DNA of 64,000 bases from Terriglobia bacterium (GTDB taxonomy: Bacteria; Acidobacteriota; Terriglobia; JAJPHL01; JAPKYU01): the NCBI GenBank assembly GCA_965218055.1, contig CBDCKA010000002.1, positions 1,056,695-1,120,694 of the forward strand, in the 5' to 3' direction. A program made the position numbers and the translations under genes. The notes under the pieces are model-generated. The model did not search any database. It was not told where the DNA came from and saw only the letters and a program-made list of their open reading frames with translations. Shown here piece after piece: positions 16,426 to 39,511 of this stretch. The number at the start of each line of letters is the position of its first letter. The first letter of the stretch is position 1.

Positions 16426-16547
16426 CGCTGGTAGGACGGATGACCACCTGTTGCGATCGGCGGCACCGATCTGTCCGCGGCCTGCGTCTAACTCACTGTT
16501 CCAGCGCTGCGTCTAGCGCGTCGACCCAGCCCTGCGCCTAGCGCATT

Positions 16548-17180
16548 GTGCCAGTCATGAAGCGTCTTGTTACGGTTCCGCTGATGTTTCTAGCTCTGCT
16601 CGGCAACCGGTCGGACCAGCCCCGGGCAACCGAACCGGAACTCTCAGAAGCGCTGGCGGAACAGATGGAGAAGAAGCTGGCGCAAATCACCGACCGGGAT
16701 GACCGAGCCCAGGGTGCCGCCACCAACCCGCACAACTCTCATGTAGTGACAGTTCTGCTGGAAGAAGAAATCAATTCCTATTTCAAATACCGGATGGGCG
16801 CGAAGATTCCAGCCGGCATCTCCCAGGTGCGTGTCCAGTTGCGCCCCCAACGTCCTTCGGCAACCGCCCTGGTGGACTTCGACCGCTTCAAGGCTGCCTC
16901 GCGCCGACCCATCCATCCCCTGCTCGACACGTTGCTCGATGGCCAGCACACGGTTGGAGTGCGCGGCCGTTTTACTTCCTCAAACGGTTCCGGGGTGTTC
17001 CATCTGGAAGAGGTCTCCATCGGAAGCTTGGCCCTCCGCGGTGCCTTGCTGGAGTTGCTCGTCCGCCATTTCATCCAGCCCCGCTATCCCGAGGCGGCCA
17101 TCAATCGCCCGTTTGCTTTGGCGGAGGGGATCGAGCAGGCGGTGGTCGAGGAGGGACGCGTTGTCATCCATCAGAAGTGA
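16548..17180 (+). CDS. hypothetical secreted protein
   Basis: signal-like N-terminus; co-oriented with the operon. Confidence 0.65.
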   Translation: MPVMKRLVTVPLMFLALLGNRSDQPRATEPELSEALAEQMEKKLAQITDRDDRAQGAATNPHNSHVVTVLLEEEINSYFKYRMGAKIPAGISQVRVQLRPQRPSATALVDFDRFKAASRRPIHPLLDTLLDGQHTVGVRGRFTSSNGSGVFHLEEVSIGSLALRGALLELLVRHFIQPRYPEAAINRPFALAEGIEQAVVEEGRVVIHQK

Positions 17181-17228
17181 TGGGCAGAGGTAATGGGCAG
17201 AAATGACCGGCACGACTGTTCAGCAATG

Positions 17229-17255
17229 AAAAAGGGAACCCGTGGCCGGATCCCC
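17229..17255 (-). terminator. rho-independent terminator
   Basis: minus strand GGGGAUCCG-GCCA-CGGGUUCCC-UUUUU; the stem needs G-U pairs available only on this strand. Confidence 0.8.
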
Positions 17256-17331
17256 TCTGGTTGATTTCAGCGCCCGCGCTGGTGGCTCGGAACAGCCGCC
17301 AGCGCGGCGCGGGCTGCTTTTGCAGTTGAGG

Positions 17332-17385
17332 CTACTTGCGTTTCTTCTTCGCCTTCTTTGCTTTCTTCTTTGCTGTCTTCTTCAT
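17332..17385 (-). CDS. 17-aa Lys-rich peptide MKKTAKKKAKKAKKKRK
   Basis: AGGAGG 9 nt upstream of ATG; own promoter and terminator. Confidence 0.7.
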   Translation of the reverse strand: MKKTAKKKAKKAKKKRK

Positions 17386-17489
17386 GCTGCGCATCCTCCT
17401 TGGCTACATTCTCCCTATGGGAACCACTGGATATCGTTCCCGCCGGCGGGAAATGCTCAACATGTTGAGCCTTCCCCGAGATTAGGCTC

Positions 17490-17517
17490 AGTGTATAGAC
17501 TTCGGTTTTCTTGTCAA
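17490..17517 (-). promoter_or_regulatory. sigma70-type promoter for the small peptide gene
   Basis: TTGACA-16 nt-TACACT on the minus strand. Confidence 0.65.
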
Positions 17518-17607
17518 GAACAAAATTTGAGAAACATGTTTTATTGTAAGCCGCCCACTCTCGCCACTCCTATTCCTCGCCGTTGGACTCCGCCAACCTC
17601 ATTGCGG

Positions 17608-17684
17608 TCGACAACCAGCATTGACAACACCAGCGATTGACAACAGCAGCGATTGACAACAGCAGTTGACGACAGTAGTTGACA
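17608..17684 (+). repeat. array of TTGACA-containing 13-16 bp repeats
   Basis: units start at 17608 (degenerate), 17621, 17637, 17653, 17666, 17679. Confidence 0.85.
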
Positions 17685-17707
17685 AGCGGCCAGACGCGCT
17701 CTATGTT
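17679..17707 (+). promoter_or_regulatory. sigma70 promoter of the porin operon
   Basis: TTGACA-17 nt-TATGTT. Confidence 0.7.
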
Positions 17708-17712
17708 TTGTG

Positions 17713-17748
17713 AACCATGGTATGGTTTACTTTTAAACCTAGGTTAAA
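17713..17748. promoter_or_regulatory. candidate DtxR-family operator(s)
   Basis: inverted repeats AACCAT-GGT-ATGGTT and AACCTAGGTT just downstream of the -10. Confidence 0.55.
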
Positions 17749-19108
17749 GAAGATCCAAGCCACCTGGCTGTTTTTCCTGCTTGCCGTTGGCGCCGTTGGT
17801 GCAGCCGTTGCGGAGCAGTCTCCGGACCCGCAAGCGCGCATCCGCGCTTTGGAGGAGCAGGTGCGTCAGTTGGAAGAACGCCTCGCGCGGCTGGAGGCGA
17901 GCGCCGTCCGGCCACAGGCGGCGGTTTCCGCCCCTACCACGGCGCCGTCAACTCCGGCGTCTCCCGAGGTGTCGGTGCCGCCGGTGGAGGCGCCTGCTGG
18001 CACCGCCGCGCCGGTGCAGGCCGTTTCGGTGACTGCCAGCTCGCCCCCAATTAAGGATTCCGAGGAAAGCGTAAATCTGCCCTATGCGGGCTACATGGAA
18101 TTTCACCTGAACAAGCCGCGTGGAGAATCCGCACAGTTCGACTTTCACCGGTTCGTGCTGCTGTTCGGCCACAGTTTTTCGTCGCGCATCAAGTTCTGGT
18201 CGGAGCTGGAGCTGGAACACTCCATTGTCGAAGGCGGAGAGGAAAAGGGGGAGCTAGAGCTGGAGCAGGCCTACCTGGATTTCTACCTGAATCCCTATTT
18301 CAACCTGCGTGGGGGAATGGTGCTGGCGCCGATGGGGATCATCAACGAGCGGCACGAACCGCCTGCCTTCTTCGGAGTCGAGCGCCCGATGGTGGACACG
18401 GTAATCATCCCCAGCACTTGGTTTGATCTTGGCGTGGGAGCCTGGGGGGATTTGGGGCGGGGCTTCACCTATCGCTTCTACCTGATGTCGCCGCTTGACG
18501 CCACCGGCTTTAGTGCGGACGAGGGTCTGCGCGGCGGCCGCCAGAAAGGCTTCCGCTCCAACGTGCGCAACTTGGCCAGGACGGCGCGGGTGGAATACCG
18601 TGGCATTCCTCGGCTGACGCTGGGCGGCAGCATCTGGGCGGGGCGCACGGGGTTCGACACGCCCGACCTGGACGCGCCGGTGCGTCTGGGCAGCTTCGAC
18701 GGGCGTTACTCCTGGAGTCGCCTGGAATTCCGTGGCCAATACGCGCATGGGTGGATTCGGGAAGCAGGATTGCTCAACCGCACGTTGCAGCGGCGCCGCG
18801 GCGTCAACCCCAACATCGCTGAGCAGATTCGGGGATTCTACCTGGAGGGCGGCGTCTACCTGTTGCCGTTCCATAGCTCGCAGAATCTGGCGGTGTTCAC
18901 CCGCTACGAGAATTTTGATACGCAGTACCGGATGCCGGACGGCTTCTTGCCCCTGGCGCAGTTCGACCGTTCGAGCTGGACGGTGGGTGCCAGCTACTTC
19001 CCGCACCCGGACGTGGTGTTCAAGGCCGACTACGTCTTCAACCGCAACGCCAGTCAGGTGATCGAAACCCGGGATCAGTTTAATCTCGGCCTCGGCTGGT
19101 GGTTTTAG
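17717..19108 (+). CDS. outer-membrane porin (OprO/P-like beta-barrel)
   Basis: signal peptide, coiled coil, ELELEQAYLDF, C-terminal aromatic WWF. Confidence 0.8.
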   Translation: MVWFTFKPRLKKIQATWLFFLLAVGAVGAAVAEQSPDPQARIRALEEQVRQLEERLARLEASAVRPQAAVSAPTTAPSTPASPEVSVPPVEAPAGTAAPVQAVSVTASSPPIKDSEESVNLPYAGYMEFHLNKPRGESAQFDFHRFVLLFGHSFSSRIKFWSELELEHSIVEGGEEKGELELEQAYLDFYLNPYFNLRGGMVLAPMGIINERHEPPAFFGVERPMVDTVIIPSTWFDLGVGAWGDLGRGFTYRFYLMSPLDATGFSADEGLRGGRQKGFRSNVRNLARTARVEYRGIPRLTLGGSIWAGRTGFDTPDLDAPVRLGSFDGRYSWSRLEFRGQYAHGWIREAGLLNRTLQRRRGVNPNIAEQIRGFYLEGGVYLLPFHSSQNLAVFTRYENFDTQYRMPDGFLPLAQFDRSSWTVGASYFPHPDVVFKADYVFNRNASQVIETRDQFNLGLGWWF

Positions 19109-19179
19109 GAGATGGGATCCTTGCGGACTAGTTCATGGACCATGGAGGCTTTTCAATTTCATCCGACGGAGGCAACCAG

Positions 19180-19521
19180 GTGATTCCGTTGTTGCTGTTT
19201 CTCCTGCTGGGACAGGCAGGCCCGGAGCCCGTGAAGCATGAGCCGAAGCGGGTGTACATGCGCGCGGAACGCTTCAGCTTCACTCCTTCGCAAATCAAGT
19301 TGCAGGAGGGGCAGCCGCTGGAGCTGACGATCGTCAGCGAAGATACCCAACACGGCTTCTGGATTCGCAAGCTGGGGATCAATTACTTGATCCCGGCGCG
19401 TGGCAAGGGAGAGTTGAAACTGAAGATCGAGTCGCTCGAACGCGGCCAGTATGTCTTCGAGTGCTCGCGCGCTTGCGGAGCCGAGCACAACATGATGCGG
19501 GGCGTGATCAAGGTCAAGTGA
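19180..19521 (+). CDS. secreted cupredoxin with CuA-type motif
   Basis: GTG after GGAGG; DTQHGF and CSRACGAEHNMM (H...CxxxCxxxHxxM). Confidence 0.8.
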   Translation: MIPLLLFLLLGQAGPEPVKHEPKRVYMRAERFSFTPSQIKLQEGQPLELTIVSEDTQHGFWIRKLGINYLIPARGKGELKLKIESLERGQYVFECSRACGAEHNMMRGVIKVK

Positions 19522-19548
19522 ACAGGGAAGGCAAGGATCGGGAAGCCT

Positions 19549-19583
19549 GGGCTCCGAGCCACGAGCGTCAGCGAGTGGTCCCT
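19549..19583. repeat. REP-like element
   Basis: gagccacgagcgtcagcgagtggtccc imperfect hairpin (translates PLADARGS on the minus strand). Confidence 0.5.
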
Positions 19584-19630
19584 TGCGGCACGACTGCCAT
19601 GACGCTCGGTTGCGGATGCAGGAGGGAATC

Positions 19631-20848
19631 ATGACCAGCAGGATACTGCGCTTGGGGTTGTTGGGTGTCGTGCTGCTTGCGGCGCCGGGCATCTACTGGC
19701 TCGGTGGCTCCCCCGCGGGCGCGCGTGCCGCCGCGGGGGCGGGTGAGCCGCAGTTCGGGGACCCGGTCCGCGGCCTGACCCCGTTTGAATTCGAACTGTT
19801 CCGACTGGGCCTGGAGGATTTCCTGGAGGTGGAGGAGCCGGAAGATGGCCTGGGGCCGGTCTTCAACGGACGCTCCTGCGCCGAGTGCCACAGCATTCCG
19901 GCCGTCGGCGGTTCCGGCACCATCCTGGAACTCCGGGCTGGTCTCCGTAACGAGGACGGCAGTTACACCGAGCTGCCCGGCGGCTCGGTGTTCCAGCTCT
20001 TCTCGATCCCGCCGCACGGCTGCCACAAGCTGATTCCGCCAGAGGCCAACGTGTTTTCACGGAGGAAGTCGCTGCCGCTGTTTGGCAATGGGTTGATCGA
20101 AGCGATTCCTGAAGAGGTGCTGTTACTGGGCGCTGCCGCCAACCAATCCCATCCGGATGGCATCGGCGGGCGTCCGCACATGGTGGTAGACGTGTCGACC
20201 GACACAACCCGCGTGGGCCGCTTCGGCTGGAAAGCGCAGCAGGCCACCCTGATGAGCTTCGGCGCCGAAGCCTACCTGGAAGAGATGGGCATCACCAGTG
20301 ATCTGTTCCCGCAAGAAGTGGAGGCAGGCTTTGACGACCCACGTAAGACGCGCGACTGCGACCCGCGCCCCGATCCTGAGGATGCGCGCGAGCCCCTGAC
20401 CGGGCTGCGCGGCATTGATAACTTTGCCAACTTCCTGCGGATGCTGGGCCCGCCTCCCCGCGGGCCGCAAGACGAGTTGACCGCAGCCGGCGCACAGGTG
20501 TTCGAGCAGATCGGTTGCGCTGCCTGCCACCTCCCGGTCATGCTTACGGGTCCAGCGCGCGAGCCCTGGCTGGATCGCCAGCCCGTGCGGCTCTACTCTG
20601 ACCTGTTGCTGCACGACATCGGCACCGGCGACGGGCTGCCGCAGGGTGACGCTTCCGGCGACGAGTTTCGCACACCTCCCCTTTGGGGGCTGCGGGTGCG
20701 CTCCCCGTTTCTGCACGACGGCCGGGCGCCGAGCGTTGAGCAGGCCATTCGTATGCATTGGAACCAGGCCGAGCAAAGCGGGCGTCGCTTTGAGGCTTTG
20801 ACAGACCAAGAGCGAACCGCTTTGCTACAATTCCTGAAGTCGCTGTAG
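19631..20848 (+). CDS. di-heme oxidoreductase (DHOR family), secreted
   Basis: GLGPVFNGRSCAECH, CAACH, GRFGWKA, FRTPPLWGL, FLHDGRA. Confidence 0.88.
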   Translation: MTSRILRLGLLGVVLLAAPGIYWLGGSPAGARAAAGAGEPQFGDPVRGLTPFEFELFRLGLEDFLEVEEPEDGLGPVFNGRSCAECHSIPAVGGSGTILELRAGLRNEDGSYTELPGGSVFQLFSIPPHGCHKLIPPEANVFSRRKSLPLFGNGLIEAIPEEVLLLGAAANQSHPDGIGGRPHMVVDVSTDTTRVGRFGWKAQQATLMSFGAEAYLEEMGITSDLFPQEVEAGFDDPRKTRDCDPRPDPEDAREPLTGLRGIDNFANFLRMLGPPPRGPQDELTAAGAQVFEQIGCAACHLPVMLTGPAREPWLDRQPVRLYSDLLLHDIGTGDGLPQGDASGDEFRTPPLWGLRVRSPFLHDGRAPSVEQAIRMHWNQAEQSGRRFEALTDQERTALLQFLKSL

Positions 20849-20853
20849 CAGCT

Positions 20854-21600
20854 TTGGGGGGGGGGAGCGCACTCGGGCAGGACCGCGTCCAACCCGAAAA
20901 GGAGACCGATATCGCCGCCAAGCGCAGACCGCCGCGGGTCCCACTGGGAGAGGCCGTTGAAGACTATTTGAAGACGGTCTATCAGCTCACGGTCGGGGAA
21001 ACACCGGTCTCGACCAGCGCCGTGGCGGCGGCGCTGAAGGTGTCGCCGGCCGCCGTCACCAAGATGCTCCGGCGCCTTTCCTCCCTGCGGCTGGTAGATC
21101 ACTCCCGCTACCGGGGTGTCCGCTTGACGCCCGCGGGACGGCGAGTGGCGCTGGAAATCGTGCGGCACCACCGCCTGCTGGAACTCTACCTCAGCCACGC
21201 GCTCGGCTATCCGCTGGAGCGCGTACACGAGGAAGCGGAAATCCTGGAACACGCCATCTCGGAAGATTTCGAGGAACGCATTGACCGCCTGCTGGGCCAT
21301 CCGCAGGTGGATCCGCACGGCGATCCCATCCCCACGCGCTCCGGTTCCGTCCCCAAGACCCTGGGCGGAATGCTCGCGGATGCCGAAGTGGGCGAAAAAC
21401 TGGAGGTCTGCCGCGTGCGCGACAATGACGGGGAGCTGTTGCGCTACCTGGTTTCGCTGGGATTGGTACCGAAGACCCGGCTGGAAGTGATGGAAAAGCT
21501 CCCCTTTGGCGGCCCCGTGAAGGTGCGCGTCGGCGGCACCGGCGTCGAGCAGTTCGTTGGCCACGAGGCTGCCTGCAGCGTCTTCGTCGAGCGCCGCTGA
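20854..21600 (+). CDS. DtxR/MntR family metal-dependent repressor with FeoA-like domain
   Basis: VEDYLKTVY, RHHRLLELYL, EAEILEH, DPHGDPIP; start uncertain. Confidence 0.9.
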   Translation: MGGGSALGQDRVQPEKETDIAAKRRPPRVPLGEAVEDYLKTVYQLTVGETPVSTSAVAAALKVSPAAVTKMLRRLSSLRLVDHSRYRGVRLTPAGRRVALEIVRHHRLLELYLSHALGYPLERVHEEAEILEHAISEDFEERIDRLLGHPQVDPHGDPIPTRSGSVPKTLGGMLADAEVGEKLEVCRVRDNDGELLRYLVSLGLVPKTRLEVMEKLPFGGPVKVRVGGTGVEQFVGHEAACSVFVERR

Positions 21601-24408: not shown

Positions 24409-25362
24409 ATGAAGTATCCAAAGACGTTAGTTGATGCCATCCGATACTTTCAGGACTTCGAGCGGTGCCGCGAGTTCATGATAGAACTTCGCTGGCCGGA
24501 CGGCAAGGTGAATTGCCCGCGGTGCGGTGAGGACCGCGTGAGGTGGCTGGAAAAGGCTCGGGTTTGGAAGTGCTACGCAAAGCACAAGCAGCCCACCTTC
24601 TCACTCAAGACGGGGACGATCTTCGAAGATTCCCCAATCGGTCTGGACAAGTGGATCGTGGCCGTATGGCTGGTTGTCAACTGCAAGAACGGCGTCTCAT
24701 CCTACGAGATAGGCCGCCATCTTGGAGTTACGCAGAAGTCGGCCTGGTTCATGAATCACAGGATTCGGAAGGCGATGCAGGAAGGCTCGTTCTCAAAGCT
24801 CGGCGGAGAGGTTGAGGTCGATGAGACGTTCATCGGCGGGAAGGCCCGCAACATGCACGTCTCGAAGCGGAGGCGTCGTATCACAGGGACAGGGGGGAAG
24901 GACAAGACGGCCGTTCTCGGCATGTTGGAACGCAACGGCAGGGTACGAACCACCGCGCTAGAGGATCGGCGCAAGCGAACAATCCAGCCGGAAGTTCGCG
25001 AGTATGTTGAGGCTGGCGCGGCTCTCTTTTCCGATGAACTTTTGTTGTATGACGGGCTAGAAGCCGACTACGCCCACGAGGTCATCGACCATGCCGTGGA
25101 GTACGTGAGGGGGAATGTCCACACAAATTCTTTGGAAAATTACTGGTCCCTTCTCAAGCGCGGCCTGAAAGGGACATACGTTTCTGTCGAGCCGTTTCAC
25201 CTATTCCGTTACCTTTCCGAGCAGGCTTTCCGGTTCAACAACCGCAAGGCTCAGGGTGGAGACTTCGAGCGATTCGTGCTTGCAATGGCGCAATCTGTCG
25301 GGAGGCGTTTGACCTTTGATGAGCTTGTGGGGAGAACGCCTAGTCCAGCGGCAGTTTACTAA
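24409..25362 (+). CDS. IS1595 family transposase
   Basis: N-terminal Zn ribbon CPRC, VEVDETFIGG, HTNSLENYWSLLKR, FRFNNR. Confidence 0.92.
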   Translation: MKYPKTLVDAIRYFQDFERCREFMIELRWPDGKVNCPRCGEDRVRWLEKARVWKCYAKHKQPTFSLKTGTIFEDSPIGLDKWIVAVWLVVNCKNGVSSYEIGRHLGVTQKSAWFMNHRIRKAMQEGSFSKLGGEVEVDETFIGGKARNMHVSKRRRRITGTGGKDKTAVLGMLERNGRVRTTALEDRRKRTIQPEVREYVEAGAALFSDELLLYDGLEADYAHEVIDHAVEYVRGNVHTNSLENYWSLLKRGLKGTYVSVEPFHLFRYLSEQAFRFNNRKAQGGDFERFVLAMAQSVGRRLTFDELVGRTPSPAAVY

Positions 25363-39434: not shown

Positions 39435-39511
39435 TGGCGCGCCCGGAGAGACTCGAACTCCCGACCTACTGGTTCGTAGCCAGTCGCTCTATCCAACTGA
39501 GCTACGGGCGC
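39435..39511 (-). tRNA. tRNA-Arg(ACG)
   Basis: GCGCCCGTAGCTCAGTTGGATAGAGC...CTACGAA...GGGAGTTCGAGTCTCTCCGGGCGCGCCA, 77 nt. Confidence 0.97.

Follow-up and report, generated by a model that had tools for sequence, protein, structure and literature searches.

bTHX, bS22/COX24 and eL41 are strongly basic proteins of fewer than 35 residues that are missed by gene finders, and they are Arg-rich, with fixed positions and length. A short ORF rich in one amino acid is combined with structured RNA and a terminator in the polycysteine attenuators of mycobacteria, while in the CtrA regulon of Caulobacter one motif stands at replication genes, at regulator genes, and at some envelope and division genes. 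Longer basic sequences are found in Chlamydia Hc2 (HctB; 165–237 aa, PMC2848022) and in the C-terminal domain of Pseudomonas AlgP, whose repeat region of 154 aa sits on a folded domain (PMC9239181); both are Lys/Ala/Thr/Pro-rich, of low complexity, Arg-poor and variable in repeat number. Non-specific DNA binding has been proposed for both. ResR/McdR, a MerR-type regulator of mycobacteria, controls cell division, DNA repair and ribosomal genes (PMC10336103), and in the motif published for it ACA and TGT stand 4 nt apart (PMC9040748).

The gene described here lies in the window, the whole 64,000-nucleotide stretch of DNA that was analysed. It shares the composition of Hc2 and the AlgP tail, but its product is a free peptide (10–22 aa across the class) with its own transcription unit. 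The peptide, MKKTAKKKAKKAKKKRK, has 17 residues, 11 of them Lys, a net charge of +12 and a mass of ~2.0 kDa. The features of the locus are as follows.

17519..17540, no strand assigned: inverted repeat AACA-N14-TGTT, a candidate operator, 1 nt upstream of the -35 box
17512..17517, minus strand: -35 box TTGACA, invariant in 7/7 family genomes (promoter scan)
17490..17495, minus strand: -10 box TACACT, with a 16-nt spacer to the -35 box (promoter scan and family alignment)
near 17483, minus strand: transcription start, predicted only
17448..17477, minus strand: leader hairpin P2 with a conserved CAUG loop, 12 pairs
17423..17447, minus strand: leader helix P3, 7 pairs
17395..17400, minus strand: Shine-Dalgarno (SD) sequence AGGAGG, invariant in the family
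17332..17385, minus strand: ORF MKKTAKKKAKKAKKKRK (ATG at 17385, TAG at 17332), showing in-frame indels and synonymous change
17270..17310, minus strand: GC-rich 3' stem of varying length, fold z -3.7
17229..17258, minus strand: intrinsic terminator-like hairpin with a U run, -19 kcal/mol, z -3.8
16548..17180, plus strand: convergent neighbour encoding a 210-aa protein, context only
17717..19108, plus strand: divergent neighbour encoding a porin O/P-like protein, context only

An earlier note on this DNA had assigned a promoter, leader, SD, 17-codon ORF, 3' stem and terminator to the minus strand, and all of them, including the terminator with its fold, lie where it had placed them. The inverted repeat upstream of the -35 box and its regulon are new here, the repeat and the conserved fold of the leader having escaped that note. 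The leader measures ~98 nt, and the mRNA predicted from the start site to the end of the terminator is 255 nt long, with a folding z of -4.0 for the whole RNA. The promoter scan scores the site 10/12 (2 sites per 4 kb versus 0.6±0.7 in shuffles), and the hexamer TACACT is also found at the -10 position of the tRNA-Pro and tRNA-Arg genes of the source genome, G000. In the family alignment, relatives carry TTGACA-17-TATACA or have 19 nt to TACAnT, and the spacer of G000 is 3 nt shorter than theirs. The terminator is absent from the list of the automatic consensus terminator scan, despite its fold and U run. An upstream ATG at 17394 was rejected as the start codon: it lies directly against the SD, which leaves too little distance, and relatives such as G005 lack it.

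The surroundings of the unit vary. The convergent 210-aa protein has no Pfam or NCBIfam match; its gene is also convergent in G001–G003 and G006 and is replaced in G004 and G005, and the porin O/P-like gene is not the neighbour in G005 or G006. Before the porin-like gene, at 17610–17690 on the plus strand, is a tandem repeat of four TTGACA and one TTGACG, with two copies in G002 and one in G001, a lineage-specific expansion of a -35 box. Consecutive genes for the porin O/P-like protein, a cupredoxin, a di-haem oxidoreductase and a DtxR/MntR-type repressor occupy 17717–21600 (plus strand) and likely form a metal-uptake unit. Elsewhere in the window are an ORF that by eye looks like a transposase and has a TTGACA promoter of its own (24409–25362, plus strand), and a tRNA-Arg(ACG) gene (39435–39511, minus strand).

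Sequence comparison gives good support to the view that the locus is a real, conserved, stand-alone coding gene. Its status as a gene is established by conservation, as Lys composition by itself is weak evidence: ATG ORFs of 10–40 codons with at least 50% Lys occur at three loci in G000 (this gene, a paralog and one unrelated ORF), compared with one in the reversed genome. A DNA search matched 13 of 41 genomes. Among these are all six other members of the family, each of which has kept the promoter, leader, SD, an in-frame Lys/Ala ORF of 14–18 codons and the terminator, so that the check proposed in the earlier note, a search of relatives for a conserved SD and Lys-rich ORF, came out in its favour. 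The unit is also present in 3/4 sister-family genomes; the order is represented by 11 genomes of 7 genera, which are kin and not independent. Within five same-length groups comprising 14 ORFs, we counted 23 extra synonymous codon states versus 3 amino-acid states, with Ala and Thr codons changing synonymously as well; indels in the ORF stay in frame, and SD, start and stop are invariant. A pattern built on the leader only retrieved 11 metagenome loci, and an SD with a Lys ORF followed in 10 of the 10 that have downstream DNA. The 17 leader-bearing units contain 148 Lys codons among 211 and no AGA or AGG codon. Over 48 ORFs of 10–22 aa, from which two further ORFs had been dropped as not stand-alone, the composition is K 68% (a share partly set by the search filter), A 20%, T 4%, P 3%, G 2% and R 0.6%; composition is preserved among the peptides, residue positions are not. 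That an A-rich stretch gave rise to the ORF as a by-product, never translated, is hardly credible. One comparable ORF does turn up in the reversed-genome control, and the exact 20–22-aa peptide forms were not found in a collection of 15 billion proteins, yet such absence is expected below the length limits of gene callers, and the confinement of change to synonymous sites and in-frame indels around an invariant SD, start and stop argues against a by-product.

Public sequencing runs containing this DNA include RNA runs labelled sponge metagenome, and we aligned four runs (RNA runs X1, X2 and X4 and one DNA run) to 16500–18200. X1 yielded one RNA contig, 17245–17467, which is identical to the window and is the only one in the 1.7 kb; X2, from a different study, covers 17256–17467 in two pieces, together with a small piece in the neighbouring gene. 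X4, from a related strain, extends over 16990–17439, spans the terminator and carries two changes in the ORF, both synonymous. The DNA run covers the entire region. The 5' contig end at 17467 was rejected as a transcription start, since the DNA run is broken as well, at the palindrome (17466), which marks an assembly effect. The 3' ends of RNA contigs near the terminator, where the DNA run continues, offer a weak hint. RNA contigs cannot give expression levels, which leaves the high expression proposed in the earlier note a conjecture, and gaps in RNA runs prove nothing; the contigs from two metatranscriptome studies faintly suggest that the unit is transcribed.

The peptide belongs to a wider class. 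Of 201 class genomes, 30 matched an ORF pattern (5 in the reversed control), and 27 of these proved on reading to encode Lys/Ala peptides; a first, too narrow class pattern had given 8/201 matches, 2 of them false. In the phylum sample 12/251 genomes matched, eight with the Lys/Ala type, four as tandem pairs. A scan of genome contigs returned at least 119 matches, at least 12 of them past the filter, with one dropped as overlapping the end of a larger gene, and among the matches listed the Lys mini-gene type also occurs in named records of Rokubacteria and Gemmatimonadota. Named Acidobacteria records contain peptides that match those of class family f5, and one pattern found no K/A mini-gene in five f7 genomes. 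Full-text searches of largely non-subscription literature returned nothing on these peptides or on the AACA-N14-TGTT motif.

The members differ in their surroundings. The paralog in G000 (C2:455612–455830, L017; also L014–L016 and L180) encodes 22 aa, with Cys at position 3 in the genus, and is carried by G000 and its genus; its leader is unlike that of the 17-aa gene, and it has its own TTGACA-17-TATACA promoter, a short hairpin leader and a terminator, without the operator. In the f5 units (L106, L116, L138, L162, L165–L167, L169–L171), an invariant 17-nt element stands between the stop codon and the terminator, and a loop resembles the CAUG hairpin, with no Rfam match for those scanned; these units are flanked by a VWA-domain gene and, in several cases, a JAB-domain gene. 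Family f61 (L206–L209) has tandem pairs of genes of the MAKKAKKAAKK type, with a promoter-like TTGACA at the first and a hairpin after each. Rokubacteria-type loci (L058 so named; L135 and L158 similar) contain one or two Lys ORFs of 10–12 aa, convergent to a gene that by eye resembles rpmB (L28).

The leader of the unit has a conserved fold. P2 and P3 are paired in 190 of 190 cells over ten family sequences; two P2 pairs are changed on both sides, in one lineage, alongside several G-U variants, and P3 shows one-sided changes only, such that covariation in the leader appears modest. The upper part of P2, the CAUG-loop hairpin, is kept in the sister family. The 3' stem is conserved at its base, with changes on both sides, and variable at its top, and the terminator hairpin is conserved with paired changes. 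Consensus folds of both families pair a 5' UCUC with the SD, as a switch that hides the SD would, and in single-sequence ensembles this pairing is at or below 0.14 in 16/17 units. The AUG of the loop was rejected as the start of an upstream ORF, because over the 17 units its frame relative to the main ORF is 0, 1 or 2 and its length 5–91 codons. Nothing exceeded the Rfam gathering threshold in the window or in 20 homolog loci. The leader was also rejected as a general cis-element: over 141 genomes, model R1 hit nothing beyond the peptide loci on either strand, apart from two weak matches elsewhere that are unrelated.

Three other accounts of the gene were weighed. One makes the RNA the main product or a sensor, in which lysyl-tRNA supply or the state of the ribosome would be read out as the Lys run is translated, and the readout would tune the stability or activity of a trans-acting structured RNA. 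We consider this unlikely. It could explain why the first 45 nt of the leader are more conserved than the ORF, why a CAUG-loop hairpin is present in two families, with a similar loop and the invariant 17-nt 3' element in f5, and why Lys is retained where Arg would preserve the charge. However, leaders and 3' parts change between orders while the peptide type persists, Ala and Thr codons vary synonymously too, and Rfam provides no match; nor was CsrA found in G000, on which ground a CsrA sponge was rejected. The neighbours also vary, the downstream gene being convergent in 6/7 family genomes, and no lysine gene was found among 52 neighbours scanned, which rules out ordinary attenuation: unlike amino-acid attenuators, the locus has neither a consistent co-oriented downstream gene nor a lysine-pathway gene nearby.

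The remaining two accounts keep the peptide as the product and give it other targets. The earlier note had offered as one option a tiny ribosome-associated protein analogous to bTHX/bS22. Such a protein of the ribosome, or binder of rRNA, would occupy a pocket as bTHX, bS22 or eL41 do; the analogy is now disfavoured and in our estimate improbable. Size and charge suit it, and whole-genome searches of G000 for PF17070 (Thx) and PF08213 (bS22-type) found neither, although controls were detected, so that the slot could be open; the Rokubacteria-type Lys ORFs are convergent to the rpmB-looking gene, and the mycobacterial MerR-type ResR/McdR controls ribosomal genes (PMC10336103). Unlike bTHX, bS22 and eL41, however, the peptides are Arg-poor, almost without Arg, vary in length with no fixed positions, and are unlinked to ribosomal operons in the order. 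The 20-aa extended form has no profile or PDB match, which is a weak test at such length, and no operator was found at five ribosomal-protein operon leaders. The distribution is patchy as well (27/201 class genomes by pattern). We give an equally low rating to a general-purpose encoded polycation, either a polyamine substitute or a binder of, for example, polyphosphate, with no chromosome-specific job. Similar mini-genes without the operator occur in distant phyla, and the Lys/Ala/Pro tail of AlgP localises to and spaces polyphosphate granules (PMC9239181). Neither PPK1 nor PPK2 was found in G000, which is 97.8% complete, and polyphosphate was rejected as the target on this ground; moreover, the operator ties this copy of the gene to replication genes.

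That tie comes from the inverted repeat. The AACA-N14-TGTT motif was defined at the peptide promoters first and then looked for elsewhere. It is exact in 15/17 leader-bearing units, the other two having one mismatch and a 13-nt spacer, respectively, and it stands 1 nt from TTGACA in family genomes and 9 nt from it in those of the sister family. Together with a -35 box it occurs 11 times in the 11 order genomes, 9 times at the peptide gene (1 occurrence in the reversed control). In G000 the motif is also found upstream of gyrB, smc and the gene for a MerR-like protein. At gyrB it is exact in 7/8 order genomes, the eighth scoring 21.4, versus 0/12 outside (one of 21 loci was dropped for having no upstream DNA). 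At the MerR-like gene an exact site lies over the ribosome-binding site in 11/11 order genomes, several of which have one in the promoter spacer too, and the right half-site is formed by the start codon and the first bases of the next codon. In G000, where only 21 of 2004 upstream regions reach 14, a matrix trained on 29 sites from other genomes puts gyrB in second place and the peptide gene in third. Three loci lay outside the training set of the matrix: dnaB scores at least 15.7 in 10/10 order genomes versus 1/12 outside (three second, weaker dnaB hits were dropped), the gene for an XRE-like regulator at least 16.9 in 8/11, and smc at least 17.7 in 4/11, all in the family, versus 0/14 outside. 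The candidate regulon of AACA-N14-TGTT in G000 includes the following.

C1:552559–553056: gene for the MerR-like protein
C2:1046429–1047076: gene for the XRE-like protein
C1:850741, C2:2321207 and C2:942803: further regulon coordinates, listed with dnaB, gyrB and smc

In G000 no site reaching 14 was present at the leaders of rpsL, rpsJ, rplK, rpsB and rplU, at two lysC-like genes, dapA and lysS, or at the leaders of recA, lexA, ftsZ, topA and HU, and parA (10.4) and dnaA (9.1) fall below threshold; the ribosomal, lysine-related and other control genes were located by sequence signatures. Sites at tolQ, parB, an M23 peptidase and a lytic transglycosylase were found in single genomes or in f2 only and are absent in G000, and recurring sites also stand at genes without an evident link to DNA (tolQ, a putative ATPase). 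The motif spacing is not enriched genome-wide in G000; counts versus the reversed control are 11/0 in G005, 25/12 in G008, 12/5 in G010 and 5/4, hardly above it, in G002. Several sites overlap TTGACA or TATAAT, and the matrix partly scores promoters. The motif is absent at the paralog in the same genomes and at all class members outside the order, and the link is thus lineage-specific. Taken together with the sites at the other genes, the repeat suggests that the peptide gene is likely under the same regulator that is predicted for gyrB, dnaB and smc in the order.

Some sites have features of their own. In G008, 5 of 15 examined sites lie at the centre of long palindromic repeats, an intergenic family centred on AACATTT...AAATGTT (L288, L293, L295, L299, L301). 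The top-scoring site in G000 (C2:2718050, L214) overlaps TTGACA before a 106-aa, Cys-rich, signal-peptide-like ORF without a Pfam match. The 450 nt before dnaB (L332, L337, L341) are a long leader without coding sequence, in which the operator covers an extended -10 box and DnaA-box-like words recur at a similar position; the leader was rejected as oriC, as these words are scattered and the GC skew is uninformative.

From these positions we infer that the motif is a protein-binding site and that the MerR-like protein is its reader. This protein matches PF13411 over the cut-off (E 9e-16), with atlas hits below 0.9 for its C-terminal part, and is encoded in 11/11 order genomes and 2/2 f7 genomes and in none of 12 others. 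The XRE-like protein, found in 11/11 order genomes with one weak hit outside, is a second candidate. The MerR-like protein is favoured because the sole two outside genomes with the site are both f7 genomes, G023 having it at dnaB and G015 at the MerR-like gene. Activator sites are often located just upstream of the -35 box, and repressor sites overlap the promoter or ribosome-binding site. The site is just upstream of the -35 box at the peptide gene and overlaps the promoter or ribosome-binding site at dnaB and the MerR-like gene, which would correspond to activation of the former and repression of the latter two. McdR/ResR resembles this arrangement in its MerR-type HTH, its inverted repeat built on ACA/TGT and its growth-related targets, but differs in the spacer, which is 14 nt here and 4 nt as published (PMC9040748, PMC10336103). 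The CtrA regulon, which involves a different protein family and motif, is a functional analogy only.

Of the uses to which such a peptide could be put, a free polycation resembling a histone H1 tail, neutralising or condensing DNA under a chromosome-replication regulon, is in our judgement the probable one, if by a small measure. On this reading the 255-nt mRNA would be translated into a disordered Lys/Ala polycation of 17 residues; the +12 peptide would attach to DNA of any sequence, neutralising or compacting it as a free H1 tail does; and the packing of the chromosome would be kept in step with replication through the regulator common to gyrB, dnaB and smc. In vitro, plasmid DNA is condensed by oligolysines that carry charges of +3 to +10 (PMC2790876). 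Since a +12 peptide binds any polyanion in vitro, DNA as the target is drawn from the regulon, and the chromosome is proposed because of co-regulation with gyrase, helicase and SMC. The condensed state of H1 tails is determined by charge density and the ratio of Lys to Arg (PMC11331069), and the retention of Lys over Arg fits a dynamic, H1-like rather than a protamine-like condensation. The nucleoid peptide that the earlier note had called histone-H1/protamine-like therefore divides: its H1-like half gains indirect support from the operator common to gyrB, dnaB and smc, whereas its protamine-like half agrees poorly with 0.6% Arg and the missing AGA/AGG codons. The composition is that of an H1-like protein, Lys/Ala/Pro/Thr-rich and Arg-poor; the H1-like length (>100 aa) and a folded domain are both lacking, and the stop codon is conserved. 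At 10–22 aa and with neither the 20-aa extended form nor the 22-aa paralog matching a Pfam or NCBIfam profile, a search of little power at such length, the peptide may at most work like Hc2 or the AlgP tail. A broader proposal, which we put forward tentatively and hold to be doubtful, is an undescribed master regulon in the order, in which the MerR-like protein would act at AACA-N14-TGTT to lower expression of the replicative helicase and of its own gene, to set the levels of gyrase and SMC, and to turn on a minimal polycation condenser.

Genes for oligo-lysine peptides of 10–22 residues constitute a widespread class that neither gene callers nor trypsin proteomics can see, and the motif link to the gyrase, helicase and SMC genes provides a first functional handle on it, in the form of a testable regulator-operator pair. 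Should the peptide condense DNA, it would count as a minimal nucleoid protein and could serve to model the bacterial origin that has been proposed for the H1 tail; if both the condenser and the master regulon hold true, it would represent the smallest type of nucleoid protein, a linker-histone tail without a domain. The regulon itself would open a first view of how replication is controlled in this order of Acidobacteriota, which has been little studied.
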